From the NCBI GenBank assembly GCA_016703425.1, contig JADJCA010000011.1, positions 314,050-378,049 on the forward strand: a DNA stretch of 64,000 nt, in the 5' to 3' direction. Position numbers and translations under genes: made by a program. This document shows, in pieces, positions 3,516-64,000 of the stretch. The notes beneath the pieces are model-generated. The model made no database searches and was not told the DNA's origin. It saw only the letters and a program-made list of their open reading frames with translations. The first letter of the stretch is position 1. Each line of letters starts with the position of its first letter. The stretch is from Myxococcales bacterium. GTDB lineage: Bacteria > Myxococcota_A > Polyangia > Polyangiales > Polyangiaceae.

Positions 3516-5183
3516 GTGCAGTTCCCCGGCAAGACCGAGACGCGGCTCGCCATCGTGATCATGAGCGTGGCCATGGCGCCGCTGCTCGTGGCCGTGCTCT
3601 TTGCGCGCTCGATGTTTTCGCAGGCCGCGTCGGTGTGGTTCAACCCGGAGGTTGGCACCGAGCTCGACCGCGGCGTGGGCCTCTACAAGGATTACGTCCG
3701 CGTCATCAAGGAGGACATGCGGCACCGCGCCGAGCTGCTCGCGGAAGACGACGCCTTGCGAGAGGCCGCGAAGAAGAAGAGCCCGGCAGACCTGGAGCGC
3801 GCGCTCGCGCCGCTGTTCGCCAAGTACCCAGACATCGTTGCCCTCAAGGTCCTGACGGAGAGCGGCGAGCTGCTCGGTCAAAGGGACCGCGGTCGGCCCG
3901 TCGACGAAGGCCGCGAGCGGAGCCTCGACGTGACCAGGCCGCTGACCCGCGACGACGCCGCCGCCTCGCTCGTCGTGACCTTCGCTGCGGACCGCAACAA
4001 GCTCGACGGCCTGGAGGCGTCGAGCGCCGTCGTGGCCAAGTATCACCAGCTCGAAGGGTCCCGCACCGATCTGTACACCGGCTACGTGACGGCCTTCGCG
4101 GCGCTCCTGGGCATCACGTCCGTCGCCACCGTAGGGCTTGGCATCTTGCTCGCGCGCGGTGTCACCAAGCGCATCAATCGGCTCGGCGCGGCCATGAACC
4201 TCGTCGCGCAGGGCGATCTCACGGCCCGCGTGCCCGTTACGGGAACCGACGAGCTGACGGAGCTGGCCTTCGGCTTCAACCGCATGCTGGACGAGATCTC
4301 GCAGACTCGCGCGCGGCTCGAATTCTTGCAGCGCTTGGGCGCTTGGCAGGAGATGGCCCAGCGGCTCGCCCATGAGATCAAGAACCCGCTCACGCCGATT
4401 CAACTCGCGGTGCAGGAGTGCCACCGAAAGTATGCGGGGGAAGATGGCAAGTACCGCTCCCTCCTCGACACGACCCTCGAGATTGTCGAAGAAGAAGTCG
4501 CGACGCTAAGGCGCCTCGTCTCGAACTTCTCCAACTTCGCACGCCTGCCGCACTCGGAGCTCCGCGACGGCAGCTTGCGCGAGTTCGTGCTCGAGTGCTC
4601 GTCGCAGCTCGGTCACCTGGAGGATGAAGGCGAGTCCATCGGCGAAGACGCGCGACGGACCAACGTCACCATCGATTGGCGTGTCCCAACGGGCGAGCTG
4701 CCGGTGGCCGTCGACCGGCAGATGCTCCGCCGCGTCGTCGTCAACTTGGTGCGCAACGCCGTGCAAGCCATTCGCGGCGCGCGCGGCGAAGGCGGGACGG
4801 TGCGCGTCTCAGCGGAGGCCGAAGGCCAGGGCGCGGTCCTTTACATCGACGACGACGGGCCCGGCATCCCCGACGAGCTGCAGGCTCGGGTCTTTGAGCC
4901 CTACTTCACCACCAAGTCTGATGGCACAGGCCTCGGCTTGGCCATCGTGAAGAAGGTCGTCGTTGAGCACGGCGGCTCCATCAGCGCGGCGAAGAGTCCC
5001 CTCGGCGGCGCGCGCTTCGCCGTTCACCTGCCGCCGCCCACGTCGTTGGCGCTCGCGGCGGCGCGCGAGGCGCGCGAGCTGGCTCTCCGCGCCGGCGTTT
5101 CGACGAGTCAGCTGGACGTCCCCGAGATCAAGGCGCTAAGGGAAGCGGCGCGGGCGAAGAAGAGCGCCCGGGAGGACGCATGA
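3516..5183 (+). CDS. Two-component sensor histidine kinase (TM, HAMP, HisKA, HATPase_c).
   Basis: H-box LAHEIKNPLTPIQLAV; N/G-box region ...LVRNAVQAI...; G2 box GTGLGLAIVKKVVVEHGGSI; N-terminal hydrophobic segment. A GTG at 3513 is an alternative start. Confidence 0.85.
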   Translation: MQFPGKTETRLAIVIMSVAMAPLLVAVLFARSMFSQAASVWFNPEVGTELDRGVGLYKDYVRVIKEDMRHRAELLAEDDALREAAKKKSPADLERALAPLFAKYPDIVALKVLTESGELLGQRDRGRPVDEGRERSLDVTRPLTRDDAAASLVVTFAADRNKLDGLEASSAVVAKYHQLEGSRTDLYTGYVTAFAALLGITSVATVGLGILLARGVTKRINRLGAAMNLVAQGDLTARVPVTGTDELTELAFGFNRMLDEISQTRARLEFLQRLGAWQEMAQRLAHEIKNPLTPIQLAVQECHRKYAGEDGKYRSLLDTTLEIVEEEVATLRRLVSNFSNFARLPHSELRDGSLREFVLECSSQLGHLEDEGESIGEDARRTNVTIDWRVPTGELPVAVDRQMLRRVVVNLVRNAVQAIRGARGEGGTVRVSAEAEGQGAVLYIDDDGPGIPDELQARVFEPYFTTKSDGTGLGLAIVKKVVVEHGGSISAAKSPLGGARFAVHLPPPTSLALAAAREARELALRAGVSTSQLDVPEIKALREAARAKKSAREDA

Positions 5184-5749
5184 CCGAGGAGCAAAAGACC
5201 GGCGGAGAGGCGCGGCTCGAACAAGAAGAGGGTGGCACGCTGCGAACCCTCGTGTTGGTCGTGCTCTTTGTGGCCGGTGTGGCGTTCGCGTCGCGGCTCG
5301 TCAGGCCGCCGGTTCATGCCCTCCAAGGCAAGCCAGCCCCGACGTTCTCCCTGGGCGCCCTCGACACGGGGAGCGGCGCGGCTGCCACCGTGTCGTTGAC
5401 CGACCTCCGTGGCAAGGTCGTGCTCCTCGATTTTTGGGCCACATGGTGCGGCCCGTGCAAGGCCCAATCGCCGATCCTCGACGGTGTGCAGCGGCGCCTC
5501 AAGGATCGCGGCCTCGTGGTCGTGGGCGTGGGAACCAACGACTCGCCGGCCGCTGCGCGGGCATGGGTCAAAGGCCACGGCATTAGCTACCCCGTGGTCA
5601 TGGACGAGGACGGCACCGTGTCCCGCGCCTACGGCGTCTCCAATTTGCCCACGCTCGTGGTGCTCGCCAAAGACGGCACCGTGCGAGCGGTGCGCGTTGG
5701 CCTGACCGACGCCTCGGAGCTCGAGCGCTTGGTCGCCGGCGTCTTGTAG
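5180..5749 (+). CDS. TlpA/ResA-family periplasmic thiol:disulfide oxidoreductase (thioredoxin fold).
   Basis: WCGPC active-site motif (FWATWCGPCKAQSP), N-terminal membrane anchor, AhpC/TSA-like layout. Confidence 0.85.
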   Translation: MTEEQKTGGEARLEQEEGGTLRTLVLVVLFVAGVAFASRLVRPPVHALQGKPAPTFSLGALDTGSGAAATVSLTDLRGKVVLLDFWATWCGPCKAQSPILDGVQRRLKDRGLVVVGVGTNDSPAAARAWVKGHGISYPVVMDEDGTVSRAYGVSNLPTLVVLAKDGTVRAVRVGLTDASELERLVAGVL

Positions 5750-5779
5750 GTTGGTGCCGAAACGCGAACGCTCCGCGGC

Positions 5780-7359
5780 TCAGCAGTCGTGGGAGTCGGC
5801 GCACGAGCTCGTCGACCCGGGAATGACGCTCGTCGACTCGTAGATCACGCGCGACTCGCAGGCGACGCCGTCCTTGGAGAAGCAGACCTCTTCGCTGCGA
5901 TGGAACCCATCGGCGCGACGCACGGCCGGCAGACGAATGCGGAGGAGCAGGGTCTTGCCATCGGGAAGGATGCCGATGTCGCGAAGGCTCGTGCCGATGC
6001 GCGTCGTCGTCTTCGCGCCGAGGTCGAGTCGGTAGAGATCGCCACCGAGGCCATCGGCGGTGGCCTTGAGCGTGAAGACCTGACCGGCGCTCGTCTGCAC
6101 GAAGCGATCGAGGGACGCGACGGGCCCGGCGAAGGCCGCGTAGCTGCGGGTCTCGAGATCGAACGTCCCGAAGGGTGCGTCGCTGCCGAAGGCGGCGCTC
6201 GCCTCGAGGCGCACCCCCTTTTCGTCGAGCGTTAGCTTCGCCTTGGCGGTGAGGCGCTCGACCTTGACCGACGCATCGACGAGCAACGACTTGCCATCGC
6301 GGGCCATGGCGAAGCGCGGCAAGGCGTGACCGATGGGCGTGAGCGTGAACTTGAGGGTCCGCGTGTCGATGACCATCAAGTGGAACGGATCGGCGCCGGC
6401 GGCGGGCACCAGCGACTTGTCGTCAAACATCGCCGCGTCCATGCGAGCCGTGTCGAGGTAGGCCACGGCGCGCTGGCCCGACGGATCCAGCGCCACGGGA
6501 CCAAACCCAGGAAGGTTCTTCAGAAACGTGGCGCCCTTCGCGTCGAAGTCGACGACGCTCACGGGGTCTGGGTTCGTCCACGTTTGCGTCGTGTTGGGCG
6601 GCCGGTCCTCGATGCAATACGTCGGCGACAGAAAGCCGCGCGAACCATCGGGCACCACCACAAGCGGCGCCGCGCAGTTGGGGACGGAGACCTTCGAGAC
6701 CGACAGGTTTGCGAGGCCTACGCTCGTGAGAACCGTCTCGGGCAGGTGATTCGACCACGTCGTCGAGCCAACGAAGACGGCGCTCTTGCCGCCGGGAAGG
6801 AACGTCACGCTCGTGGAGACGGACGCGAGGACGACCTCCCCGCGGAGCTTGCCCGTTTGCGTGTCGACGAGGGCCGCGCGGTCCGGCGCTCCCACGAGCA
6901 CCGTGCCGTCGTCTTGGCTGATGGAGAGCGTGCGCGCGTCCGTCGACGACGGTGCCACGCGCCACTTCTCGTTTCCCGTGGCCAGGTCGAGCGCGACGAG
7001 CTCGCCCTTCTTGTCCCACGCGTAGCCGACGTCACCTTCGTGCGCGAAGACGAATCGCTCGGCTTGAAAGGAGAGCTCGCGGGTCTTCTGGGCGACGACA
7101 TCGAGGAGGACGGAGACGTCGTTTCGTTGGAGGAGCGAGTAGCGCCCCGTCGGTGCAACGATCATCACGCCCGTTTGAAGGGACTCACCGGTGACGCCGC
7201 CGCTGGTGCGGTCGTTTGATTGAACGGCGCCACCTTGATCGCCGGTCGTGGGCATGGCGCAACCGACGGCGGCGCCCAGCGCGAGCACCGACACGAGAAT
7301 GCGGGCAAGGGCAGAACGTGTGCGCGAAGACGAAGCTAAGTAAGCCAAGCGGACCTCCA
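5780..7359 (-). CDS. Secreted lipoprotein with beta-propeller-like repeats and a Cys-rich C-terminus; function unknown.
   Basis: Track ORF 5780..7534. The real start is probably a TTG or GTG near 7359-7375, giving ...LARILVSVLALGAAVGC (lipobox). The rest has repeated beta-strand-rich segments. C-terminus ...CFSKDGVACESRVIYESTSVIPGSTSSCADSHDC. Confidence 0.5.
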
Positions 7360-7579
7360 ATGTTTCGGAGCAAGCGCCGGTCCAGCGGGACAAGCACGAC
7401 ACCGATCTGATGGGTGAGACTGCGCGCCGGTCCCGCGCTTCAAGGAAACGCTCGCGATTCTCGCGATTCGGTGGGACTGCGCACGGCGCCACACGAAGAC
7501 CGTGATCGCGGCGCCAGGCTGATCGACTGATCATGGCGCCGCGAGGGCGAAAGGTGCGCCGGTCGCTCTAACGCTTGCT

Positions 7580-20333: not shown

Positions 20334-21206
20334 TTAGGACGGCGGCGCGCCGGGAAGCACGACCTTCGCGAGAAGCCCCCATTGCGTCCACCAGGCGAAC
20401 CACGCCGCGAGTTTTTGAGAGACGTCTTCTTCCGTGAGCCCCATCGCGAGGGCTCGCTCGCACGCTTGTCCCAGCGGGAGCCCCTCCTTCAAGGCGGCGA
20501 GCACAGCGTGCGAGGCCGGCTCGAGCTCGTAGGAGCGGAGAGCGTCGCCGACGCGAAAGATCGCCAAGTGCACCTCGCGCTCGGCGGGCCGCGGCACCTC
20601 CGGGGCGCGACCCTCGGCGCGCACCGCTTCGCGGAAGTCATGGGTAGCAAACCGTGTGACCACGAGCCGAAGCGGCGCCTGGAGCTCAAAGCGCGCGAGG
20701 AGTACCGCGTCGGGCGCGGCCGTCGCGAGAGGCGTGGCATCGAACGGCGTGGGGTCGGCGGCGTGGTACGCGTCGATGAAAGCCCACTCGATGCGCGCAC
20801 ACTCGGCAAGCAGAGGGTCGTTGGAATACGGCAGCTCGCTCGCGACAAAGCGCTCCATGTCCTCGCTCAAGAAGCGCAGGTCGTGGTGGGAGGGCGGAAA
20901 GCGCTCCAGGTATCGCTCTCGAGCGCGCGGAAGCCGTCCCCCCAAGAGCTGGACGAGCGTCGGGAAGTCCTCTTTCAGTGAAGCGATGTGACGGAGCCAA
21001 AACTGCTCGCGGTAGACGTCGACCTGCTCGATGGGCGAAAGCGTGCGGCTGCCACGCGCGAGGGCGCTAACGGCGGCAGTGTCCGCGTCCAGGGCGAGCG
21101 GGAGCGGCCGCCTGATGGCCTCGGCGAGCAGGGCCTGAGCGCGGAGCAAAGACTCCGGAGGCGTGGGCTCCTTCGGGAACGCGTCGGCCTCGTCGACGAT
21201 GCTCAC
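20334..21206 (-). CDS. DUF2063-family partner protein of an MNIO (DUF692) enzyme (BufC/TglI-like, RRE-containing).
   Basis: N-terminal DUF2063 signature region ...IEQVDVYREQFWLRHIASLKEDFPTLVQLLGGRLPRARERYLERFPPSHHDLRFLSEDMERFV. Start overlaps the stop of the DUF692 gene. Confidence 0.75.
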   Translation of the reverse strand: MSIVDEADAFPKEPTPPESLLRAQALLAEAIRRPLPLALDADTAAVSALARGSRTLSPIEQVDVYREQFWLRHIASLKEDFPTLVQLLGGRLPRARERYLERFPPSHHDLRFLSEDMERFVASELPYSNDPLLAECARIEWAFIDAYHAADPTPFDATPLATAAPDAVLLARFELQAPLRLVVTRFATHDFREAVRAEGRAPEVPRPAEREVHLAIFRVGDALRSYELEPASHAVLAALKEGLPLGQACERALAMGLTEEDVSQKLAAWFAWWTQWGLLAKVVLPGAPPS

Positions 21207-22125
21207 GGCTCACCGCCGAGCGAGTGGGCGACTTCACGGGAAGGCGCTGTGGGTCCCAGAGGTCCCAGCACCTCGCGCCGAACCTTCCGAGCTAGCGAGG
21301 CCTCAGCCGCCAGCGTCGCCCAAGGCGGGATGTCCTCATCCCACTCGATGAGCGTAGAGACGGCGCCGGTCCGCGCGAGGGCTCGACGATAGAGCGCCCA
21401 AACAGGATCCGACACCTTGTCGGAGTGCGTGTCGAGGAGATACTTGCCCTTGTCGGTGTGCCCCGCGAGGTGCATCTGAATGACCCGATCGCCGGCGACG
21501 GTATCGATGTATCGCTCTGCGTCGAAGCCGTGGTTCTGCGCGCTCACGAAGACGTTGTTGCAGTCGAGGAGGACGCCGCAGTCGGCGCGGTGAGCCAGCT
21601 CCGCCACGAACTCGTCTTCCGGCATGCCGTCGCTCACAAAGGTCATGTAGCTCGACGCGTTCTCGATGCCGAAGGGCAAGCCGACGAAGTCCTGCACGCA
21701 CCTTATGCGGTCGGCGATGTAGCGGAGGTTCTCCTTGGTGAACGGGAGCGGCAAGAGATCATGCAGCTGAGATGACGCCGTGCCGGTCCAGCAGAGGTGG
21801 TCGGTGAACCAAGCGGGGCGCACGCGCTCGGCGAGAACGCGAAGCTCCTTCAAGTAGTCGCGGTCGAGCGGTCTTGAGGAGCCGATGGAGAGCGAGACCC
21901 CGTGGAGAACGACGGGGCGTCGGTCGAGAAGTTTCGAGAGATTGCTGAGGGGGCGCCCACCCTCGAGCATGAAGTTTTCGCTGATGACCTCGAACCAATC
22001 GATTTCCGAGAGCGGGTCACCGGGGGTGCGTCGTCGCGCTCGCCAAAGATGTCCGGGTAGTGGCGCGGTCTCGCGCCGACGCCAACACCCAAGTCCGGGA
22101 TGCGGTGCCGCTCTCTGAAGCCCAT
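21203..22125 (-). CDS. DUF692 / multinuclear non-heme iron-dependent oxidase (MNIO; MbnB/TglH/BufB family); apparent 1-nt frameshift at a C5 homopolymer (~22002-22006).
   Basis: Track ORFs 21850..22125 (MGFRERHRIPDLGVGVGARPRHYPDIFGERDDAPP...) and 21203..21970 (...MLEGGRPLSNLSKLLDRRPVVLHGVSLSIGSS...) join after a single-base shift to give ...HYPDIFGERDDAPPGDPLSEIDWFEVISENFMLEGGRP... This matches the conserved DUF692 N-terminus (GLGLR..H...VDWFEVISENF). Downstream: TIM-barrel-like ...GLPFGIENASSYM..., ...HLAGH... . Confidence 0.75.
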
Positions 22126-22188: not shown

Positions 22189-22228
22189 AGTCTCAAGGGA
22201 GCGTGCCGACGTTACCGTCGGCGACGAC

Positions 22229-22462
22229 TCACTTCTTTGCGCTGCAGCCTTCCTTCTTGTCACCGCCGGGAGCCGCGGGGGCCGCCGGGGCGCCGGGCGC
22301 CGCGGCCGCGCCGCTGCAGGAACCCTTGCCGCTGCAGGAGGCCTTCGCGCCGGGGGCGGCAACGTCCGTCGGAGCCTTCGGGGGCTCGGGAGCGCCGCCG
22401 CAAGCCGCGAGCGAGCCCATGAGGATTCCGGAGACTGCAGTAATCGCGAGCGCCTTGTTCAT
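22229..22462 (-). CDS. Candidate MNIO substrate precursor: 77-aa Cys-containing peptide with a lipoprotein signal peptide.
   Basis: MNKALAITAVSGILMGSLAACGG (lipobox LAAC) then Pro/Ala/Gly-rich core ...KASCSGKGSCSGAAAAPGAPAAPAAPGGDKKEGCSAKK with three additional Cys in C-S-G / C-S-A contexts. RBS GAGAGG 8 nt upstream. Immediately 5' of the DUF692/DUF2063 genes on the same strand. Confidence 0.6.
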   Translation of the reverse strand: MNKALAITAVSGILMGSLAACGGAPEPPKAPTDVAAPGAKASCSGKGSCSGAAAAPGAPAAPAAPGGDKKEGCSAKK

Positions 22463-22605
22463 GATGTCAAACCTCTCTCAGCGCCGGCACTTCACCGGCA
22501 AACGTGAGCGCCGCGCTGGGCGCCATACTCCGGAGCTTCGTGGGCTCCGGGCCCTCGCCAACAGCATGCTGGCTAAAGCGAGGGCGAAGCCTAGCGGCCA
22601 TCTCG

Positions 22606-22640
22606 TGATTTGCGCCACTTTTTTTTTGCTTGCTAGATTT
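22606..22640. promoter_or_regulatory. AT-rich divergent promoter region (T9 run, TTGCTTGCTAGATTTG).
   Basis: cactttttttttgcttgctagatttgtgcgaaagg is strongly AT-biased in a ~70% GC background. It lies between the divergently oriented precursor/MNIO operon and the + strand hypothetical gene. Confidence 0.35.
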
Positions 22641-22718
22641 GTGCGAAAGGTCTGCGCGTTCGTGGCTTCGCCAGTCGGTTGTCGCTGGTCTGCTGTGTCC
22701 CGTACGATTCGGGGACCC

Positions 22719-24332
22719 GTGGTTAGCCTCCTTACCCGCCCGTCGTTGCCGCCGGGACGCGACATCTTCTCCGATCTGCTCGGTGAGGTACGTTCCGCTC
22801 GGCGCGAGGACACGCTCGCGCGCGAAGAGTGGTTTGGTCGCCTTGCGGGGCCCGGTGAGAACGAGCGACTCGTCGCGACAGCGAACGTCTTTGAGCTCGA
22901 TACACTCCTCAAGGGGCTCCTTACGTTCAAGAACCCCAGGAATCACCCGGGCCCCTCCAAGCGCACAACGCCGGTGGTGGCCCAAGACTTCCGCGAGCAG
23001 CTCGTCTTCGTGGCGGAAGGCCTCGAGCGACTCCTCGACCTCACCCGGGCGCTCGTCCCTGAGGGGACGTCACGCGCGAAGGTCTTCGAGGAGTACCTCG
23101 CCTCCATGGCGCAAGAGGACGAGACCGGTAGCCCTCACGAGGACGCGCAAACACCCGACCAGGCACTCCTCCAGCTCCGAGCCGCGCTCGCGAACCACCA
23201 TGAGATCGGCGCTGGCCTCGCGCGCCTGCCGCGCGTGACCTTCCGCCTCTTTCATGCGGTGTTGGCGACGGCGGAGCGAGACGTCTTGAGGTCTCGCTAC
23301 TTTTCGCCGACGGGCCCGCTGGAGTTCCGCCCCGAATACGATCGCATCGAGAGCCGCCAGATCCTCGAGCTTGCCCGCAACGTCCCCGGTGAACAGAGCC
23401 GACAGCTCGTGGCCGTGACCTTCTTGGCGCTGTTTCGCCTCCTTCGGTACGTCGACCTCGCGGACGAAATCGTCCGCCGCCCCGAGGACCCGACGGTGCG
23501 CGGAGCGGCCTTCTTGGTGCTAGCGGTCCTCCGCTCCGACGCGCGCGGGTTGACCGACGAACTGCGGCAGCGGGCGGGTCGGCTTCTCGCCGAAGGCTAC
23601 GAGCGGAGCGTCTTTCGCGTTCACGCGCGGGACGTCGGACGACGCTTCGACGCCCTCCGCGCCGATGGACACAAGATGCTCGAGATCAAAGCCGCGCTCG
23701 AAGGTGTCGCCGCGAACCTCCGCCTCGAGCTTCGGCGAACCTTCGAACACGACTTGATGGCGCCTGAGCTGGCGCCTTCCGTTGACGTCATGCGCGAGCG
23801 CGTGGCGTTGGTGTCGAAGAACCTCAGGCCCGCGTTCCAGAACGCCATCCTCTTCCTGGGGAAGGCGCTGGGCGTTCGCCTCGACGAAGACGGCGTCTTC
23901 GACGACGTGGCGGCCAAGCGCAACCTCTCGGAGCGCTTGCGGCGGGACGTGTGGATGTTTGCGCAGATCGTTCGCGCCTTCTCCGACAAGGCCAACGCCA
24001 GCAAGGGCGCCGAAGTGCCCTGGACTGGACCGTCCCCGCTGCGCTTCGTACGCGAGTTCTTGCGCTACTTCCGAGCCATGGGCGTGCCGCTCTTGCGAGC
24101 GGCCGACTACCCGCGCATCGACGCCTTCATCCAGACGATGAGCGGTCTTGAGGAGGCCGATCTCGTCGAGCCGGGACGGCTCGAGCACGCCGTCGCGGAG
24201 GCTTCCACGTTCCACGCGTTCTTGCTCGAGTTGGTGGCCAGCATCGGTCAACGCGACGAGCTTGTGTCGACGCCCTTCGACAAGCGAGCCGCCGCGCAGG
24301 CGCTCAAGCTCTACCTCGGCGCCGCCGACTGA
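22719..24332 (+). CDS. Hypothetical protein (~537 aa), divergent from the MNIO operon.
   Basis: Track ORF 22203..24332. The first ~170 codons are antisense to the precursor gene and promoter. Protein-like sequence begins around the GTG at 22719 (VVSLLTRPSLPPGRDIFSDLLGEV...). No recognisable motifs. Confidence 0.45.
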   Translation: MVSLLTRPSLPPGRDIFSDLLGEVRSARREDTLAREEWFGRLAGPGENERLVATANVFELDTLLKGLLTFKNPRNHPGPSKRTTPVVAQDFREQLVFVAEGLERLLDLTRALVPEGTSRAKVFEEYLASMAQEDETGSPHEDAQTPDQALLQLRAALANHHEIGAGLARLPRVTFRLFHAVLATAERDVLRSRYFSPTGPLEFRPEYDRIESRQILELARNVPGEQSRQLVAVTFLALFRLLRYVDLADEIVRRPEDPTVRGAAFLVLAVLRSDARGLTDELRQRAGRLLAEGYERSVFRVHARDVGRRFDALRADGHKMLEIKAALEGVAANLRLELRRTFEHDLMAPELAPSVDVMRERVALVSKNLRPAFQNAILFLGKALGVRLDEDGVFDDVAAKRNLSERLRRDVWMFAQIVRAFSDKANASKGAEVPWTGPSPLRFVREFLRYFRAMGVPLLRAADYPRIDAFIQTMSGLEEADLVEPGRLEHAVAEASTFHAFLLELVASIGQRDELVSTPFDKRAAAQALKLYLGAAD

Positions 24333-33942: not shown

Positions 33943-34170
33943 CTACGGCTCGTCGAGTAGGCCGAACTCCCATTTTTCGCCCGGCTCGCGGAGGCCCGCC
34001 ACGGCCGATTCGACGCGGCGCAAGAGCTCGTCGGCGGCAGCTGCCGGTGAGGCTTTGACGCCCACGGCGACGCCACCCTCCCAGAGCCACACCTTCGCGC
34101 CGGCGACGCCGTCGACGCCGTAGACCAACTCGAGCGTTCTACGCAGCCGCGGCGGCAGGGCATCGCTCAC
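33943..34170 (-). CDS. Small hypothetical protein, last gene of the NosL operon.
   Basis: 75 aa. Start overlaps the NosL stop (ATGA). No recognisable motif. Confidence 0.35.
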   Translation of the reverse strand: MSDALPPRLRRTLELVYGVDGVAGAKVWLWEGGVAVGVKASPAAAADELLRRVESAVAGLREPGEKWEFGLLDEP

Positions 34171-34607
34171 GGTGCGCCCTCGTCTTTGAGAATCGCTTGG
34201 GTCACGTCCCCAAGCTTGTACGTCCGCCGCCCGCGGTGGTCACCCATGAACTTCTGCACCTTGTCGGGGTGCACGGGGACGAGCTCCGGCCCCATGGGGC
34301 CTTCGACGTCGCTGCCGGCGACGAAGACGACCTCATCGCCGCGAAGGCTGGCTTGGCTGTAGTGCTCGCGGACGTGAAGCTCGGGCATCTTGGCCAGCGG
34401 CGCCTTGGCGAGACGGGCCGCGAGCGCGCAGCGGGGCGTGTCGAAAACGCGAGTGCCGCTGTCGTCCTTGAGCTCCGCGCGGAAAGGGCTGCGCTCGTCG
34501 ACGAGCATGCCGCAATGGGGGCAGCGGACTCGCGACGCGCTGCCGCTGCCTTTGGCGCGGCACGACAGGGAGAGCAACGCGAGGAGGAGGAGCGAGCGGC
34601 GCGTCAT
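34167..34607 (-). CDS. nosL: NosL-family copper-binding lipoprotein.
   Basis: MTRRSLLLLALLSLSC lipobox. RCPHCGMLVDE...FDTPRCAL...HVREHY...VFVAGSDVEGPMGPELVPVHPDKVQKFMGDHRG matches the NosL consensus (C.hCGM...FD...C...PMG...). Internal ATG of track ORF 34167..35351. Confidence 0.7.
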   Translation of the reverse strand: MTRRSLLLLALLSLSCRAKGSGSASRVRCPHCGMLVDERSPFRAELKDDSGTRVFDTPRCALAARLAKAPLAKMPELHVREHYSQASLRGDEVVFVAGSDVEGPMGPELVPVHPDKVQKFMGDHRGRRTYKLGDVTQAILKDEGAP

Positions 34608-35626
34608 GGGAAGAGGAAGACGCCACCGGTATGCCATGCGTAGCGGACAATGGGCATAAGCCCCACAACGAACGCGACGAGGAACGCGCCCGCGCTCCGG
34701 CCGAAGCGCGTGCGCGCAAACAGAAGCGACAGCGCTGGCTCGCGCGATAGGAGCCACGCCGTGACGGCGCCGAGGGCCCAGACGACGCCCGCGTAGAGGG
34801 CACCGAAGAGGGGGAAGCCGATGGCCCCGACGTCGCCATGAAGCAGGCAAAACGGGCAGAGGTGGTGCGGCGTCTCGAAGGCGTGGGGAGCGACGCCGAA
34901 GACGACGGCGAGGACTCCAAGGGCGGACGCTAAGACCGCCACGGCGCCGGCAGCTAGCATGGCGCCCGTGTTTGGACGCCGCGCCACGCGCGCGCCCGCG
35001 ATGACGGCGAGCAGCACGAAGGCGCCGCCCGTCACGGTGACGCCGAGGCGCGGCAACGAGACGTGGCCGGGGCCCGCCGCGAGCGCGGTGTCCAGTTCGG
35101 CCGAGCAACAGGAGGCGGTCGCCGACAGGTCGAGCTCGAGGAGAAACAGGGTGCTCAGCGCGGCGTGGATCAGCGCGAGCGGCGCGAGGACCGCGGTGGC
35201 GCGCGCGAGGGCCCGAGCGAGCGTCAGTCGAGGCATCAAGGCATCGAACGCGTAGAGCTGCGCGAGCACCCCCCCAAGGACGGCCAGCGCGACGGAGAGC
35301 GCGAGGGCGGGCACGCCGTAGCGGTTGGCACCAAAGACGCCATAGGCGCACATGGCGCCACGCAGCGAGTGCGACAGCCGGTCGGCGGTGAGGACCCCGA
35401 GGCCGAGGTCAAGGACCGCGCCCACGGCGGCGACGCGCGCGAGGATCTGCGCGAGCTCCACGCGTCGTTCGATGAGGAGCTGCCCCTCGGTGGCGGCGGA
35501 CTTCTCCGCGAGATCTGCTGAACGAAGCAGGCGCAGCGCGGTGCTGGCGGCGCGGATGAAGAGCGCGGCGAGCGTCACGGCCGACGCGAGCCGCAAGAGC
35601 ACGAAAGGCTGGAGGAGGTTGGTCAC
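34604..35626 (-). CDS. Polytopic membrane protein with conserved Cys/His motifs (SCCS loop; HHLCPFCLLHG at a TM start); unknown family.
   Basis: ~8 hydrophobic segments. Motifs ...LSATASCCSAELD... and ...FETPHHLCPFCLLHGDVGAIGFPLFGALYAG... Translationally coupled to the ABC ATPase upstream and NosL downstream. Confidence 0.55.
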   Translation of the reverse strand: MTNLLQPFVLLRLASAVTLAALFIRAASTALRLLRSADLAEKSAATEGQLLIERRVELAQILARVAAVGAVLDLGLGVLTADRLSHSLRGAMCAYGVFGANRYGVPALALSVALAVLGGVLAQLYAFDALMPRLTLARALARATAVLAPLALIHAALSTLFLLELDLSATASCCSAELDTALAAGPGHVSLPRLGVTVTGGAFVLLAVIAGARVARRPNTGAMLAAGAVAVLASALGVLAVVFGVAPHAFETPHHLCPFCLLHGDVGAIGFPLFGALYAGVVWALGAVTAWLLSREPALSLLFARTRFGRSAGAFLVAFVVGLMPIVRYAWHTGGVFLFP

Positions 35627-36390
35627 GCGTCTCCCGTGAGGCGGCCATTCTGGAGGGACTCGACGCGCACGCGCGCGCGCGGCACCGTTCGAGTGAGACC
35701 GTCCACGAGGCGCGGATCGTGCGTGGCGACCACGATGGCGCGCCCTTCCTCGGTCAATGTCGCGAGATCCTCCGCCAATCGCCTCGACGCGCCTTCGTCG
35801 AGGTGCGCCGTAGGCTCATCGAGCAGGACGATGGCAGGGTCGCGCACCAGCGCTCGGCACATGGCCACGCGCGCGGCTTCGCCACCGGAGCGCACGGCGG
35901 CTTTCGCGCCGACGAGCGGCGTGAGCTCAAACCGGGCGAGGAGCGCCTCCGCACGTTCGCGATCGGCGCGGGACTCGCCATCGGGCACACACGACAACAG
36001 AACGTTGGCGCGCACCGACAAGCCGCGGAGCAACTGCGCGTCTTGGAAGACGAACCCCACGTTGCGGCGACGTACCTCCGACTTGTGGGCGTCTCGCAGA
36101 CGGGACGTGGCGACGCCATCGATACGAACCTCTCCGCTGGTGGGCGCGAGCATGGCACCCAGCATCGCGAGCAGCGTGGTCTTGCCGCTGCCGCTCTGGC
36201 CTTGAAGCACCAGCAACTCGCCTCGATCGACGCGCAGCGACACGCCGTCGACAACCGTGCGACGCCCTCGACCATCGGGCACTCGTTTCACGAGGGCTTC
36301 GGCTTCGAGGGTCGCGCGCGCAGGCACGAGCGGCGTTGGCGGCGCGCTGGCCATCGTGCCGGGCGTGTTGGCGAGCATGGTGGCGAGCAT
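35623..36390 (-). CDS. ABC transporter ATP-binding protein (FtsE/LolD-like).
   Basis: Walker A GQSGSGKTT. Degenerate signature RSGGEAARV. Walker B IVLLDEPTAHLD. H-loop VATHD. Confidence 0.85.
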   Translation of the reverse strand: MLATMLANTPGTMASAPPTPLVPARATLEAEALVKRVPDGRGRRTVVDGVSLRVDRGELLVLQGQSGSGKTTLLAMLGAMLAPTSGEVRIDGVATSRLRDAHKSEVRRRNVGFVFQDAQLLRGLSVRANVLLSCVPDGESRADRERAEALLARFELTPLVGAKAAVRSGGEAARVAMCRALVRDPAIVLLDEPTAHLDEGASRRLAEDLATLTEEGRAIVVATHDPRLVDGLTRTVPRARVRVESLQNGRLTGDA

Positions 36391-36575
36391 GATGGCGAGA
36401 GATTGATAGGGCAGCGGGCGGGGGGATGCCTTCGTGTTCGGGCCGTGGTGGCTATTTTTTCAAAGTGTGCCACCATGTGCCTTCGTGACACGGGCGCCCT
36501 GGCTGGGGTGTTTGGCGTGCATCTACGTCGTTGAAATAACTAGTGGCACTGGTTGTGCTGAGGGTTCTTGGGGCG

Positions 36576-36923
36576 ATGCGCACGAACGATCGACGAATCC
36601 GCTGGATGCTGGTGGCGAGCCTCACGGCCCTCGCCGCCGCGTGCACGCTGAATCCGCAGCCGATTCCCCCTGGCTTGACGGAAAAGTCGAGCGACGGGCC
36701 CGACGCCGGCGCGCCTTTCGCCGGCGCCGCAAGTGACGCCAGCACGACCACGAACCCCTCGGATCCGAATCGCGAAGGCGGCGTCGCCGAGGCGGATGCG
36801 AGCCCGCCGTCACCTCTTCTCGATGCGGGCGTTCAGCCCAGCGACGCGGGCGCCGACGCGACGCTCGACGCCGGGGCTGACGCCACCGGCGTCGCCAGCA
36901 GTGACGGAGGAGACGCAGGATGA
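36576..36923 (+). CDS. Acidic low-complexity lipoprotein (paralog 1), conserved C-T-LNPQPIPPG N-terminus.
   Basis: MRTNDRRIRWMLVASLTALAAACTLNPQPIPPG..., then an Asp/Ala/Gly/Ser-rich tail. Stop overlaps the start of paralog 2 (ATGA). Confidence 0.5.
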   Translation: MRTNDRRIRWMLVASLTALAAACTLNPQPIPPGLTEKSSDGPDAGAPFAGAASDASTTTNPSDPNREGGVAEADASPPSPLLDAGVQPSDAGADATLDAGADATGVASSDGGDAG

Positions 36924-37240
36924 AGCGGCGGCTCCTCTTAGCTTTGCTCGTTGTCGCTTCGGCGGCCGTCGCCTGTTCGTTGAATCCGCAGCCCATCCCT
37001 CCGGGCGTCGACGAGCCGGCCAACGCCGGCCGAAGCGACGCCAAAACCGGGAGCGACGCCGCGTCACCTCCGCAGGTCTCGACGGGCGGAGGCGACGCCG
37101 GTTCCGGGTCTCAAGGCTCGGACGCCGCTACGCCGGACGGCGCGAGCAACGGCGTCACGGATGAGGGGGGTGTGACCGACGCCGCCGCCGACGGCACCAT
37201 CGCACCGGGCGACGCCGCGTCGGACGCCCCCGCCGACTGA
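36920..37240 (+). CDS. Acidic low-complexity lipoprotein (paralog 2).
   Basis: MKRRLLLALLVVASAAVACSLNPQPIPPG..., then an Asp/Gly/Ser/Ala-rich tail. Confidence 0.55.
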   Translation: MKRRLLLALLVVASAAVACSLNPQPIPPGVDEPANAGRSDAKTGSDAASPPQVSTGGGDAGSGSQGSDAATPDGASNGVTDEGGVTDAAADGTIAPGDAASDAPAD

Positions 37241-59373: not shown

Positions 59374-60636
59374 GTGCTGGTGTCTCTTATCCAACTGGGC
59401 ATGAGTTGTGTCGTCGCCTTTGGGTTGACGTTGGTCGCCGCGGAAGCGCGCGCCGCCGACGAGGGCCCGGTGTCGTTGACGCTAGCCGAGAGCCTCGCCC
59501 GCGCCGAGGCGCAGGCGCCGGAGGTCATCATGGCAGGCCACGAGCTGCGCGACGCAGCGGCGCGCCGCGTCGGCGCTGGCCTCATATTGCCCTCAAACCC
59601 CCGGCTCTCGGTCGACGCGCGACCCGTGCTCCGAGGCGGCTCGCTGAGCGACGTCGGCTACGCCGCGACGGCAGACATGCTCTTCGAACCTGGCGGAGCG
59701 CCTAGGGCTCGCGTCGAAGAGGCCGACCGCTTCAAGAGCCTGGCGCAGTCGGAGCTCCGCATCCACCGACTCTCGGCTCGAGCGCGAGCGTTCTCCGCGT
59801 ACCTTCGCGCCCTCATCGCCGAGCAGCGTGTGAGGGAGTCGCGCGCCGCTGTAGAGCTAGGGGAGCGCGTTCTCAGCGCCTCCCGCGACCGAGCCGACGC
59901 GGGCGCGTCCGGTGACATCGAACGCAGCCTGGCGGAGAGCGAACTCGGTCTGTCCCGTGCCTCGCTCAGCGCCGAGGAGCAACGGCAGTTCGACTACGTC
60001 ATGGACCTTCGCGATGCGATGGACCTTCCGGCCGACACGGGCGTCACGCTGACGACGCCCCTCACGGACCCGCAGCCCGTGCCTCCGCCGGCAACGCTGG
60101 TGCCGAAGGCCGTCTCGTCGCGCGCCGATCTCGATACGATTCGCCGTCGCATCGACCTCTTGCTGGCAACGGAGACGCGCCTCGAACGGGAGACCTTCCC
60201 GAAGGTCGGAGGCTACGTGGGCGTCGACGCGACGCCACTGTCACCCATGGTGGGCATCGTCGGGGTGTCCGTAGAGCTACCGGTGGCGCAGCGGAACCAG
60301 GGGCCACTCGCGCGCACCGCAGCCCAAAGGACCGGCGAGGAAGAGCACCTCGTGCTGGAGGCGCGCCGCATCGTGCGCGAGGTCTACGCGACGCACGCGA
60401 TCTTCGAGGCGCGGAGGCGGGAGCTCGGCATCTTGACGATCACGGCCCTGCCGGCGGCGGAACGCACGCTGGTGCTCGTCGAGAGCGGCTGGCGCTCCGG
60501 CCGCTTCGACATTTTTCGCGTCGTGAGCGCGGCACGCGACCTCGCGCGTGTCCGCACCGCGCGGCTCGACGCGCTCGAAACGGCTTGGCTCGCGCGCATC
60601 GCCATTGACCGCGCCGTTGGAGGACTCGAACCATGA
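59374..60636 (+). CDS. czcC: Outer-membrane efflux protein, CzcC/TolC family.
   Basis: Signal peptide. Two-repeat helical/beta architecture typical of OEP. First gene of an operon with an RND adaptor and an HME-RND pump. Confidence 0.8.
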   Translation: MLVSLIQLGMSCVVAFGLTLVAAEARAADEGPVSLTLAESLARAEAQAPEVIMAGHELRDAAARRVGAGLILPSNPRLSVDARPVLRGGSLSDVGYAATADMLFEPGGAPRARVEEADRFKSLAQSELRIHRLSARARAFSAYLRALIAEQRVRESRAAVELGERVLSASRDRADAGASGDIERSLAESELGLSRASLSAEEQRQFDYVMDLRDAMDLPADTGVTLTTPLTDPQPVPPPATLVPKAVSSRADLDTIRRRIDLLLATETRLERETFPKVGGYVGVDATPLSPMVGIVGVSVELPVAQRNQGPLARTAAQRTGEEEHLVLEARRIVREVYATHAIFEARRRELGILTITALPAAERTLVLVESGWRSGRFDIFRVVSAARDLARVRTARLDALETAWLARIAIDRAVGGLEP

Positions 60637-61847
60637 GTGGTGAAGCCGGTAACCCGACAACCAAGAGCCGCGGCCTCGTGAGCGTGGGCGTCCCCAGTCC
60701 ACGCGCTCGGGTATTGCGAGTGGTTGCGGTGGCGAGCCTGGTGATCGGCGTCGGCCTTGCGGTCATGGTCGCGCTCAAGAAGACCAAGGTCCCCGACGCC
60801 TCTGTAGCGCCACCGCGAGACGTGGCACGTCTCGACGGGAAGTGGATCCGCTTCTCCAAAGAATTCGCGCTCCGCGCCGGCATTGAATCGGCCGTCGTCG
60901 AGCAGGCGTCTTTGGAGCCGACCATCAGCGTCACGGGCGCCGCAACATTCGACCCGGAGGCCGTCGCGGCTGTTGGCGCCCGAATCGCCGGGCGCGTCCG
61001 CAAGGTGGTGAAGTACCCTGGCGACGCCGTGAAGCGGGGCGAAGTGCTTGCGGAGCTGGAGAGCGCCGAGCTAGGCCAGGCGCAAGCGGCGGTGTTGTCT
61101 GCGCGGGCTCACGTGGAGGCCGCGACGGCGAACGAGGCCCGCGAGAAGCAGCTCGCCGAGGCCCGTGTTTCGTCGATGCGTGACTTCGAGCTTGCGCGCG
61201 CCACAGCGCAAGCGACACGAGCCGAACTTCACGCGGCGGAGCAGAAGGTGCGCGCGCTGGGTGGCGCTGGCGGCGGCGAAATCGGTGTCATGGCGCTGAC
61301 GTCACCGATCGACGGCAAGGTCGTCGAGCTGCGCGCGTCACGCGGTCAGTCTGTGGAGCCCAGCCACACCGTCTTCAAGGTCGCCGACATCCGCTCGTTG
61401 TGGATCGAGTTGGCCGTCTTCGAGCGAGAGCTGGGCCACGTTCGCCGTGGCGACGTCGTCGAGATGTCGCCACAGACAAACACGCAGATGCTCGTGCGCG
61501 GGAAGGTCGCCCACGTTGGAGACATCATCGACCTCGACACGCGAAGCGCGCAGGTGCGCGTCGAGATCGACAATCGAGAAGAGAAGCTTCGGCCTGGGCA
61601 GTCCGTGATCGCGAGGATCCACACGCAGACGGCGCCGCTATCGGTCGTCGTCCCACGAGACGCGGTCACCACAGTAGACGGCAAAGCCACGGTGTTCTTG
61701 GTGCACGAGGAGACGGCCGTTGAGCCCCGCGCGGTGATCGTCGGCTCGCGCGACGGAACCCGCGTCCAGATCAAGCAAGGTCTGGAGGTTGGCGAGCGAG
61801 TCGTGGTGAAGGGCGTCTTCGCGCTCAAGTCCGAGGTCTTTCGATGA
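60633..61847 (+). CDS. czcB: RND efflux periplasmic adaptor subunit (CzcB/CusB family).
   Basis: N-terminal TM. Biotinyl/lipoyl-like hairpin and beta-barrel domains (..VSVTGAATFDPE..; ..SPIDGKVVELRASRGQSVEP..). ATGA overlap with the upstream gene. Confidence 0.85.
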   Translation: MSGEAGNPTTKSRGLVSVGVPSPRARVLRVVAVASLVIGVGLAVMVALKKTKVPDASVAPPRDVARLDGKWIRFSKEFALRAGIESAVVEQASLEPTISVTGAATFDPEAVAAVGARIAGRVRKVVKYPGDAVKRGEVLAELESAELGQAQAAVLSARAHVEAATANEAREKQLAEARVSSMRDFELARATAQATRAELHAAEQKVRALGGAGGGEIGVMALTSPIDGKVVELRASRGQSVEPSHTVFKVADIRSLWIELAVFERELGHVRRGDVVEMSPQTNTQMLVRGKVAHVGDIIDLDTRSAQVRVEIDNREEKLRPGQSVIARIHTQTAPLSVVVPRDAVTTVDGKATVFLVHEETAVEPRAVIVGSRDGTRVQIKQGLEVGERVVVKGVFALKSEVFR

Positions 61848-61869
61848 TGAAGCGACGAAACGCCGCCCG

Positions 61870-64000
61870 ATGTTAACAAGCCTCATCGAAATATCGGTCC
61901 GCTTCCGGATCATGGTGCTCACCCTCTTCGTCGTCCTCCTCGCGGCCGGCGGATGGGCCGCCACCACACTTCCGATCGACGCCATCCCTGACGTGTCCAC
62001 GACTCAGGTCTCGGTGCTCACCGAGGCGCCGGGCCTCTCTCCCATCGAGATTGAGCGCACCGTGACGTTCCCCATGGAGGCGGCGCTCAACGGAACCCCC
62101 AACCTGGTAGAACTTCGCTCTGTTTCGCGCTCAGGCCTCTCGGCAGTGACCGTCATCTTCAAAGACGGAACAGACCTCTGGCTCGCGCGCCAGATCGTGT
62201 TGGAGCGCGTGCGGAGCGTTGAATCCGACCTGCCAAAGATTGCGAAGAAGCCCGAACTGTCTCCCGTCTCGGGAGGCCTCGGCGAGATCTACCAGTTCGT
62301 GGTTCGCTCCGACCAGCACTCGCCGACCCAGCTGCGAACGATCCTCGATTGGGAGGTGCTGCCAAAGCTCCGAAGCGTTCCCGGCATCATCGAGGTCAAC
62401 ACGATGGGAGGCGACCTCAAGCAGTACCAGGTGCTGATCGATCGTGGTCGCCTCCGGGCCCATGAGATGACACTTCGCGAGGTAGCGAGCGCCCTCGAAA
62501 GCTCGAACCTGAGCGTCGGTGGCGGCTATCTAGACCGCAGCAGCGAGTCCTTCTCGCTGACCGGCGTCGGTCTCTTGCGCAACGAGGAAGAGATCGGCAA
62601 CGTCGTCTTGCGAACCGGCCGCGATGGCACGCCGCTTCTCGTCAAGAACGTCGCGACCGTGCGCGTCGGGGCGGCCCTCCGTCACGGCGTCATCACCCGC
62701 GATGGCGAGGGCGAAGCCGTTACCGGCATCGTGATGATGCTCGTAGGCGCCAACAGCCGCGACGTCGTTCATGCGGTGAAGCGGCGTGTCGTCGAGATCC
62801 AAAAGACCCTCCCGCCGGGCGTGATCATCGACCCGATCTACGACCGCTCCGACTTCGTGGGACGCACCCTTTCGACCGTCATGAAGAACCTCGTGGAGGG
62901 GGTCCTGGTCGTGACGTTCGTGCTGGCGCTCCTCTTGGGCACGGTGCGTGGCGCGCTGGTCGTCGTCGCCGGCATCCCAGCGTCGATGGCCATCGCGCTC
63001 TTTGGCATGCACCTCTTCGGCGTCACCGGCGACCTGATGAGTCTCGGCGCCATCGACTTCGGGTTCCTCGTCGACGGTCCCATCGTCATCCTAGAAGCGG
63101 TGATGGCAGCGGCGTCCGGCGCGCAGCTCGCATCGGCGGCCCGCGCGCGCGCCTATGCCAAGATCGCAGCCTCGGTGGCTCGGCCCGTCGCGTTCGCTGT
63201 GGCGATCATCATGCTGGTGTACCTGCCATTGCTCACGCTCGAAGGGATCGAGGGCAAGATGTTTCGGCCTATGGCCGTGACCATGGCCTGCGCGCTCTTC
63301 GGCGCTCTCGTCTACTCCGTTCTCTTCTTCCCGGCACTCCTTGTGACCTTCGTGCCGCCGCCGAAGAAGGGCGGCGCGACCTGGCTCTCGCGGCTCGAGG
63401 AGGCCTACGGCGAAACGCTGCGGCGCGCTATTGGGATGCGCTGGGTACTCTTGGGCGCGTTCACCGTCGCGCTCGCCGGCGCTGTCCTTCTCCTGGCGCG
63501 CGCCGGCGCAGACTTTCTGCCTCGCATCGAAGAAGGCGACGCCGTCGTCACCATTCGCCGTGCCCCATCGATGAGTCTGGCTCAAGCGAAGGAGCTCGAC
63601 CTTGCCGCCGAGCGCGTCCTCAGGCGCTTCCCCGAGGTCGTCACCTCGCTGGCCATGACGGGCCGCGCCGAGGTGGCCATCGACCCGGTGGGCAACGACA
63701 ACACCGACATCTTCGTCCACTTGAAGCCCAAGGAGCAGTGGACCACGACGCCAGATTTCGACGAGCTCTCGACGCGCATCAAGAACGCCATCGAGTCCGA
63801 CGTGCCGGGCACGTTCGTTTCCGTCTCGCAACCGATCGAGGACAAGACAAACGAGCTCATCTCCGGTTCACGCGCCGACGTACAGATCGCCCTGTTTGGC
63901 GACGAGCTGACCGAGCTCAAGAAGCTCAGCGAGGCGGTCGGCGGCGTGGCCCGCACCGTCCGTGGTGCCGGCGACGTGCGCGTCGAGCGCGTTCTTGGTG
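61870..64000 (+). CDS. czcA: Heavy-metal efflux RND permease (CzcA/CusA family), 5' ~710 codons; the gene continues beyond the window.
   Basis: MLTSLIEISVRFRIMVLTLFVVLLAAGGWAATTLPIDAIPDVSTTQVSVLTEAPGLSPIEIERTVTFPMEAALNGTP... is the canonical HME-RND N-terminus. Not in the ORF track because it is open at the window end. Confidence 0.85.
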   Translation, partial: MLTSLIEISVRFRIMVLTLFVVLLAAGGWAATTLPIDAIPDVSTTQVSVLTEAPGLSPIEIERTVTFPMEAALNGTPNLVELRSVSRSGLSAVTVIFKDGTDLWLARQIVLERVRSVESDLPKIAKKPELSPVSGGLGEIYQFVVRSDQHSPTQLRTILDWEVLPKLRSVPGIIEVNTMGGDLKQYQVLIDRGRLRAHEMTLREVASALESSNLSVGGGYLDRSSESFSLTGVGLLRNEEEIGNVVLRTGRDGTPLLVKNVATVRVGAALRHGVITRDGEGEAVTGIVMMLVGANSRDVVHAVKRRVVEIQKTLPPGVIIDPIYDRSDFVGRTLSTVMKNLVEGVLVVTFVLALLLGTVRGALVVVAGIPASMAIALFGMHLFGVTGDLMSLGAIDFGFLVDGPIVILEAVMAAASGAQLASAARARAYAKIAASVARPVAFAVAIIMLVYLPLLTLEGIEGKMFRPMAVTMACALFGALVYSVLFFPALLVTFVPPPKKGGATWLSRLEEAYGETLRRAIGMRWVLLGAFTVALAGAVLLLARAGADFLPRIEEGDAVVTIRRAPSMSLAQAKELDLAAERVLRRFPEVVTSLAMTGRAEVAIDPVGNDNTDIFVHLKPKEQWTTTPDFDELSTRIKNAIESDVPGTFVSVSQPIEDKTNELISGSRADVQIALFGDELTELKKLSEAVGGVARTVRGAGDVRVERVLG

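Follow-up and report, generated by a model that had tools for sequence, protein, structure and literature searches.

A NosL-containing operon from a Polyangiaceae bacterium combines a MacB/LolD/FtsE-type ATPase gene with an undescribed eight-helix membrane protein and may serve copper handling

The stretch of DNA analysed here (the window) comprises 64,000 nucleotides of contig JADJCA010000011.1 from a bacterium of the Polyangiaceae and has a G+C content of 69%. On its minus strand, four consecutive open reading frames (ORFs) run from position 36390 down to 33943 and encode an ATP-binding cassette (ABC) ATPase, a membrane protein with eight transmembrane (TM) helices (here termed the 8TM protein), a lipoprotein of the NosL family and a protein of 75 aa (Table 1). 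All three junctions are 4-nt start/stop overlaps: GTGA between the ATPase and 8TM genes (gcGTGAcc), ATGA between the 8TM and NosL genes (ccATGAcg), and again GTGA between the NosL gene and the 75-aa ORF (ccGTGAgc). The third-position G+C of the four frames (0.80-0.87) matches that of the other genes in the window. The length of NosL is counted from an internal ATG within a longer mechanical ORF, and the start of the ATPase is uncertain (36390 to ~36354), because its homologues measure ~225-232 aa against the 255 aa obtained from the ATG at 36390. Comparison with related loci identifies the first three genes (ATPase, 8TM, NosL) as a real and conserved three-gene operon, whereas the 75-aa gene is restricted to one clade and sometimes inverted; the overlapping four-gene operon proposed in the first-pass annotation of this DNA therefore stands as to its ORFs and overlaps, but not as a conserved unit of four.

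Table 1. Features of the NosL-containing operon and its upstream region (positions in the window).
Feature	Position	Strand	Remarks
ABC ATPase, MacB/LolD/FtsE type	35623..36390	-	255 aa; PF00005
Membrane protein, 8 TM helices, undescribed family	34604..35626	-	340 aa
NosL-family lipoprotein	34167..34607	-	146 aa; PF05573
75-aa ORF, clade-specific neighbour	33943..34170	-	GTGA overlap with NosL stop
Tandem motif GGCACA-N3-TGGCACA, upstream of ATPase gene	36466..36481	-	aligned in 13 related loci

The NosL protein matches PF05573 with 47.9 bits (gathering cut-off 24) over profile positions 8-130 of 131. Searched as a single sequence against the PDB it returned zinc-finger noise alone, and the solved NosL structures were reached instead with a profile of 17 NosLs from the gene module described below, which matched chain 7osf_H (P. 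stutzeri, NosDFYL complex) at 2e-13 and chain 7og7_A (S. denitrificans) at 2.5e-10. In the S. denitrificans NosL crystal structure, Cu(I) is bound by Cys62, Met64 and Met145 and zinc by Cys59, Cys62, Cys88 and Asp92, the positions of Cys88 and Asp92 being swapped in clade II NosL; some NosL homologues are also found outside nos clusters (PMC8457098). The corresponding residues of the window protein are C29-P-H-C32-G-M34, F-D56-T-P-R-C60 and G-P-M105-G. Its CPHCGM and GPMG motifs align to CHVCGM and GAMG of the solved chains, and the Cu(I) ligands within them (C32, M34 and M105) are invariant in the 17 aligned module NosLs; among the structural zinc ligands, C29 and D56 are invariant and C60 is conserved in at least 90%. 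The zinc ligands of the window NosL stand in the swapped Asp...Cys order, as in clade II. An N-terminal Sec signal with lipobox Cys, MTRRSLLLLALLSLS-C16 (LSLS-C16), was read from the sequence by eye, and this Cys is kept in 15 of the 17 aligned relatives (it is missing in L084 and L086). Judged from its sequence, the window NosL is a bona fide member of the family that keeps every published Cu(I) and zinc ligand.

No Pfam or NCBIfam family, ABC-2 included, was matched by the 8TM protein. Its 348 close homologues are each ~340 aa long, annotated as hypothetical and without a Pfam domain, and the named hosts among them are Polyangiaceae and Labilithrix. When 1.84 billion representative proteins were searched with a profile, 847 clusters (50% identity) were retrieved at E<=0.001, 550 of them at E<=1e-10, almost all matched over their full length and with named members that include Anaeromyxobacter sp. 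and Rubrivivax sp.; nine distant family members had no Pfam match either. The family is characterized by a length of ~320-345 aa, eight TM helices and the motifs GAMCAxG, (S/T)CC and PxHxCPF(C/D), all of which are present in the window protein. The AlphaFold2 model of the latter (predicted local distance difference test 86.9; predicted template modelling score 0.87) consists of eight long helices, for which Foldseek gave no match in the PDB at E<=0.001, and none was obtained at E<=10 when all sequences of the PDB were searched with the family profile (hmmsearch). An internal duplication was rejected, as the N-terminal and C-terminal halves aligned with a probability of only 0.5% in hhalign. 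The 8TM protein is a member of a large, unnamed and undescribed family.

Judged by the distribution of Lys and Arg (14.4 in the odd loops versus 6.1 in the even loops and termini), the protein has its N-terminus in the periplasm (predicted N-out), together with loops 2, 4 and 6. In this predicted topology the periplasmic loops carry M92-C93, S172-C173-C174 and P253-x-H255-x-C257-P-F-C260, so that the membrane has the Cys-bearing loops and NosL on one side, and a long cytoplasmic helical hairpin formed by TM1 and TM2 carries D38, Q49 and E53. When conservation was counted over 74 diverse family members, M92, C93, C173 and C174 were present in all of them, C257 and P258 in 73, and H255 and F259 in 72. 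Position 260 is Cys in 57/74 and Asp in 16/74, an interchange which suits a metal ligand rather than a redox-active CxxC. In the cytoplasmic hairpin, Q49 and E53 are kept in 73/74 and D38 in 63/74. What is conserved throughout the family is almost entirely a set of putative soft ligands on three periplasmic loops together with the residues of the cytoplasmic hairpin.

The ATPase matches PF00005 at 1.5e-30. Among the NCBIfam models it comes closest to LolD (152.7 bits), FtsE and MacB but reaches none of their equivalog cut-offs, so that it is related to named systems without being an orthologue of any of them. Walker A, signature, Walker B and H-loop are intact, the signature reading RSGGE in the window and LSGGE in relatives; the enzyme looks functional and is translationally coupled to the 8TM protein. 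The catalytic motifs are also intact in 57 relatives without an adjacent FtsX gene, which shows the ATPase to be under selection in this FtsX-less clade and speaks against decay. The identities of the three proteins agree with those given in the first-pass annotation, which had recognized an FtsE/LolD-like ABC ATPase, a NosL lipoprotein and a polytopic partner with Cys/His motifs unrelated to NosY (a partner that matched no ABC permease family), and which had noted the absence of nos genes: in a Pfam scan, no NosZ, NosD or ABC-2 permease was present among the 20 large ORFs of the window (smaller ORFs were partly scanned), nor at the related loci examined.

The gene neighbourhood was analysed in 79 loci from species-representative genomes, all of the class Polyangia, and in a metagenome scan that yielded at least 592 8TM loci, for which neighbours were counted in the best 80 using hidden Markov models built from the identified modules. 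In the Polyangia, the NosL gene follows and adjoins the 8TM gene in 64/75 loci and the ATPase gene immediately precedes it in 60/74; the linkage of the three genes is not mere inherited order, because it is kept in loci that lack the synteny with CarD, Ppx and cNMP (cyclic nucleoside monophosphate) genes seen in close relatives of the window. In distant members of the family, the 8TM gene stands last in a fixed order of small TM protein, FtsX permease, ATPase and 8TM. An AT-rich organism displays redoxin, small protein, FtsX, ATPase, 8TM, NosL and DUF3187, an Anaeromyxobacter locus multihaem cytochrome, NosL, small protein, FtsX, ATPase and 8TM, and a Rubrivivax-type contig SCO1-SenC, DUF2946, NosL, NosL, small protein, FtsX, ATPase, 8TM and cytochrome c; two further contigs also carry the larger module. 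DUF2946 is the nearest Pfam model for CutF-like copper proteins (PMC8456105). The permeases of the module are FtsX/MacB_PCD proteins of 376-396 aa with a MacB-like periplasmic domain, which match the LolC/E models best but far below cut-off, and the small TM protein has no family match.

In the metagenome loci the ATPase gene is directly upstream of the 8TM gene in 53/55, the FtsX gene immediately precedes the ATPase gene in 36/39, and the small-protein gene is in place in 34/37; a redoxin gene follows directly downstream in 38/62, and NosL is encoded within 4.5 kb in 13/20. Clustering of the flanking ORFs revealed as recurrent neighbours a P1B ATPase (16 loci) that bears HMA and HMA_2 domains, a DsbD_2 membrane protein (14 loci), a 213-aa protein without Pfam match (13 loci), a TonB-dependent receptor (5 loci) and DsbD (4 loci), and no recurrence of mer, czc or zinc-specific genes. 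In the metagenome loci L092-L171 (e.g., L140 894-3353, L120 5897-6697 and L102 7013-7651) the module is often found within a larger island comprising the P1B ATPase (HMA, HMA_2), the DsbD_2 membrane protein and the 213-aa protein. The module was seen in Myxococcota (Anaeromyxobacter, Sandaracinaceae), Betaproteobacteria (Rubrivivax) and many metagenomes, and full-text searches of the literature found no description of a NosL-FtsX-ABC module.

Among the Polyangia, the small protein, FtsX and ATPase genes stand directly upstream of the 8TM gene in L049, L055, L057, L058, L061 and L067 and nearby in L059 and L060, and they form a separate unit a few kb off in L048, L054, L062, L069 and L072. In L060 (Sandaracinaceae; 4615-5922) a gene for an ABC1 atypical kinase is inserted between the module ATPase and the 8TM gene. 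The Polyangiaceae/Labilithrix clade (~50 loci), to which the window belongs, has retained only ATPase, 8TM and NosL: no FtsX or small TM gene was found within 6 kb in these loci, the locus lacks a redoxin gene in this clade, and a tblastn search of the 64-kb window with six module-type FtsX permeases gave a best E of 0.28. The best 120 homologues of the Sandaracinaceae module FtsX (at least 53% identity) bear the names Sandaracinaceae or Sandaracinus and never Labilithrix, and none of these 120 lies on the long contigs that bear the reduced operon. By its gene content, the operon in the window is a reduced descendant of the larger small protein-FtsX-ATPase-8TM module.

We infer a link with copper from the ligands of NosL, from the neighbours of the wider module (SCO1/SenC and redoxin, P1B ATPase and DsbD_2, and at one locus the CutF-like DUF2946) and from the putative soft-ligand motifs of the 8TM protein. 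The operon may thus handle a soft metal ion, Cu(I) being the most likely one, as an ATP-coupled relay between NosL and the 8TM protein at the inner membrane and periplasm, a reading to which we would give about an even chance. By a swap of ligands, Cu(I) would be traded between NosL and the site on the periplasmic face of the 8TM protein; docking on the cytoplasmic hairpin of the 8TM protein would make the ATPase the sole partner that the module has in the cytoplasm; and ATP hydrolysis, sensed via this hairpin, would drive a conformational change that leads to release or translocation of the ion. Such a scheme would parallel the handing over of Cu(I) by NosL to the ATP-driven NosDFY complex. 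As FtsX and the small gene are no longer adjacent in the clade, the ATPase would work either with the 8TM protein alone or with a permease encoded elsewhere. The uncharacterized copper module that the first-pass annotation had suspected is supported in so far as the ligands of NosL and the copper neighbours in relatives point in this direction; it is, however, the reduced form of a larger module that includes FtsX.

Several points weigh against such a relay. The sequence gives no metal specificity, and copper handling is what we infer from the context; vicinal Cys-Cys pairs serve Hg(II) in MerT/MerF. A cuproenzyme client, a P1B ATPase, SCO1 and a redoxin were not found among the ORFs of the window that were tested, and in structure comparison the fold of the 8TM protein resembles no known membrane domain of an ABC transporter. 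ATPases of the MacB/LolD/FtsE class are usually paired with FtsX permeases, and in the split modules the ATPase stays with the small protein and FtsX and not with 8TM and NosL, so that a direct contact between ATPase and 8TM protein can be proposed only tentatively. Finally, NosL binds zinc as well (PMC8457098).

The main uncertainty concerns the architecture, i.e., whether the 8TM protein is a direct target of the ATPase or is reached via an unlinked FtsX. Instead of the 8TM protein, the ATPase might power an FtsX and a small TM protein whose genes lie elsewhere in the genome, with the 8TM protein and NosL as accessory components facing the periplasm, an arrangement that would be compatible with a role in copper handling and that we consider possible, if on the unlikely side. 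The type of the ATPase (MacB/LolD/FtsE), the FtsX gene directly before it in the great majority of the metagenome loci counted and its travelling with small protein and FtsX in the five split loci all favour such an arrangement. It is opposed by the lack of a related FtsX in the window and within 6 kb in the ~50 genomes of the clade, by the absence of Labilithrix and of long contigs with the reduced operon among the best 120 homologues of the Sandaracinaceae FtsX, by the overlap or adjacency of the ATPase and 8TM genes, which is the most constant trait over all variants, and by the invariant Gln/Glu hairpin of the 8TM protein, which has no other obvious partner in the cytoplasm. At the other extreme, the 8TM protein could be a membrane domain of a new kind that couples directly to an ABC ATPase and, in the FtsX-less form, would by itself deliver Cu(I) to NosL, moving it either across the inner membrane or out of it. 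We regard this as doubtful; if true, it would represent a copper transporter of the ABC type whose fold differs from that of any solved ABC transporter and which operates without a P-type ATPase. The FtsX-less variant provides a natural test of which partner the ATPase needs.

Other explanations put the function of the 8TM protein, or of the whole operon, elsewhere. The 8TM protein might be a membrane thiol-disulfide oxidoreductase, similar in function to DsbB, VKOR or CcdA, that maintains the proper redox state of periplasmic partners such as redoxin, SCO1 and the cysteines of NosL, the ABC part exporting a reductant or driving the cycle. A CxxC and a vicinal Cys pair on a flexible periplasmic loop would fit this, as would the thioredoxin-fold redoxin encoded directly downstream in many of the metagenome loci and the nearby DsbD and DsbD_2; however, 16 of the 74 members have Asp in place of the second Cys of the CxxC, which a redox disulfide would not allow, the Met and His that stand invariant beside the cysteines resemble metal ligands, no match to DsbB, VKOR or CcdA was obtained in sequence or fold (Pfam, PDB, Foldseek), and the window's clade lacks the redoxin gene at the locus. 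We therefore judge it rather improbable.

Detoxification of a thiophilic metal other than copper (Zn, Cd, Hg or Ag) is improbable to a slightly greater degree. Vicinal Cys pairs and Cys-Pro motifs are known in transporters of Hg, Cd and Zn, and the P1B ATPases beside the wider module have not been typed for their metal. NosL, moreover, holds a structural zinc and has a fold in common with MerB (PMC8457098). Against this stand the invariance of the three Cu(I) ligands of NosL, the neighbours SCO1/SenC and CutF-like DUF2946, which are copper-specific according to the literature (PMC8456105 for CutF-like proteins), and the lack of mer, czc or zinc-specific genes among the recurrent neighbours in the flanking-ORF clustering.

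One might suspect that the module is a Lol-like sorter dedicated to pulling the lipoprotein NosL out of the inner membrane, as the module FtsX is closest to the LolC/E models (far below cut-off), the ATPase matches LolD and NosL is a lipoprotein, but this is very unlikely: the window has no FtsX permease, the NosLs of L084 and L086 lack the lipobox Cys, and it would remain unexplained why the 8TM protein has invariant Met/Cys/His motifs. Least credible of all is that the operon is a decaying, functionless remnant of the larger module, to which the loss of the FtsX, small-protein, redoxin and SCO1 genes from the locus and the RSGGE signature might hint, since the three genes, the intact ATPase motifs and the invariant ligands are kept in ~50 genomes at 37-68% identity, a retention that indicates purifying selection.

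The closest known system is NosDFYL. In both cases an ABC ATPase, a membrane partner and a NosL lipoprotein with identical Cu(I) and zinc ligands are encoded together, and the two probably share a logic by which Cu(I) bound to the chaperone is passed on in the periplasm in an ATP-coupled manner. In contrast to NosDFYL, however, NosZ, the NosD beta-helix protein and the ABC-2 permease NosY with its six TM helices are absent here, the ATPase belongs to the MacB/LolD/FtsE type, the partner is an unrelated Cys-rich protein with eight TM helices, and relatives use FtsX. With the type VII ABC systems (MacB, LolCDE, FtsEX) the module shares the ATPase subfamily and, in relatives, an ATPase gene that follows a gene for an FtsX of 376-396 aa with a MacB-like periplasmic domain; it differs from them in that the window has no FtsX permease and that the wider module adds a fixed 8TM protein and a small TM protein, neither of which is known from type VII systems. 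The Sco1/SenC, PCuAC, TlpA and CcoI routes have in common with the wider module its repeated location beside genes for SCO1, thioredoxin-fold redoxins and a P1B ATPase, and the general theme that reduced thiol ligands would relay Cu(I) in the periplasm, but such genes were not found in the window, and the ABC ATPase and 8TM protein have no counterpart in those routes. The vicinal Cys-Cys and Cys-Pro-x-Cys at the membrane boundary recall MerT/MerF and the CPx-type P1B ATPases. This is a likeness at the level of motifs: no relation in sequence or fold was detected, and the 8TM protein differs from them in having eight helices and being coupled to the gene of an ABC ATPase. The SAO selenoprotein ABC system (Haft and Gwadz preprint) was considered because of its CC/CU motifs and set aside, since its permeases are of the MetI type and unrelated.

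NosL has so far been studied only as a chaperone of nitrous oxide reductase, and the locus in the window leads from it to a large unnamed family of membrane proteins and to a fixed gene module located beside copper-handling genes. If the copper relay proposed above is true, an ABC-driven branch would be added to periplasmic copper trafficking in bacteria and NosL would gain a second job that is independent of nos; Labilithrix luteola (reduced form) and Sandaracinus amylolyticus (full form) would be its cultured hosts.

The 75-aa protein has 51 homologues, all within the Polyangiaceae/Labilithrix clade, with 51-72% identity, the operon genes being less conserved. Its gene always lies between those for NosL and CarD, yet at least three related genomes (L002/L005, L013 and L017) have it on the opposite strand, and elsewhere it is separated from the NosL gene by 50-290 nt. 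The protein has no signal peptide and no significant match in Pfam or the PDB; ZT_dimer and HMA, each matched by one member at E 0.006-0.19, were dismissed as noise. The gene is probably not a conserved part of the module, although in the window its overlap with the NosL gene suggests that it may be co-transcribed with the operon.

Upstream of the ATPase gene, the tandem motif listed in Table 1 is conserved as TGGCNCA-N3-TG(G/A)CACA in the related loci and may represent a regulator-binding or promoter element. A sigma-54 promoter of the ATPase operon was not accepted here, as the GG-N9-GC spacing of the tandem motif is one base short. A sigma-54-type -24/-12 element, TGGCACTGGTTGTGCT, lies at 36544-36559 on the plus strand (the window has 2 matches versus 0.05 expected). 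It precedes two ORFs (~36576-36923 and 36920-37240) that are divergent from the ATPase operon and encode paralogous small Asp/Gly/Ala-rich lipoproteins sharing C-[TS]-LNPQPIPPG; the element, as TGGCAC-N5-xTGCTT, and the pair of lipoprotein genes are kept at the same place in related loci.

The first-pass annotation had also suggested a comparison with an MNIO locus and a czcCBA operon in the same window. These lie 12 kb and 23 kb off, with unrelated genes in between, and neither recurs beside the module outside close relatives, and a functional link to the operon finds no support. The czcCBA-like genes form a resistance-nodulation-division efflux operon of the heavy-metal type (59374-64000, plus strand; OEP, CusB-like HlyD_D23 and ACR_tran) that runs past the end of the window. 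The MNIO gene (MbnB/TglH/ChrH; 21203-22125, minus strand), which together with its DUF2063 partner spans 20334-22125, appears to be frameshifted, which may reflect a pseudogene or a sequence error, as residues 1-28 of a relative are found in frame -2 (22125-22042) and residues 33-280 in frame -1 (22003-21260). Upstream of it, an ORF on the minus strand (22229-22462) encodes a candidate precursor of a ribosomally synthesized and post-translationally modified peptide, 77 aa long, in which SCSGKGSCSG...GCSAKK comes after a lipoprotein-like signal. The precursor of a relative, with which it shares 52% identity, bears four KASCSANGGQ repeats; together with MNIO and DUF2063 the candidate resembles a bufferin-type locus. 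The ORF of this candidate precursor overlaps, on the other strand, the mechanical start of a 709-aa ORF (22203-24332, plus strand), which, like another long ORF of 584 aa (5780-7534, minus strand), matches no Pfam family and shows a coding-like G+C bias.

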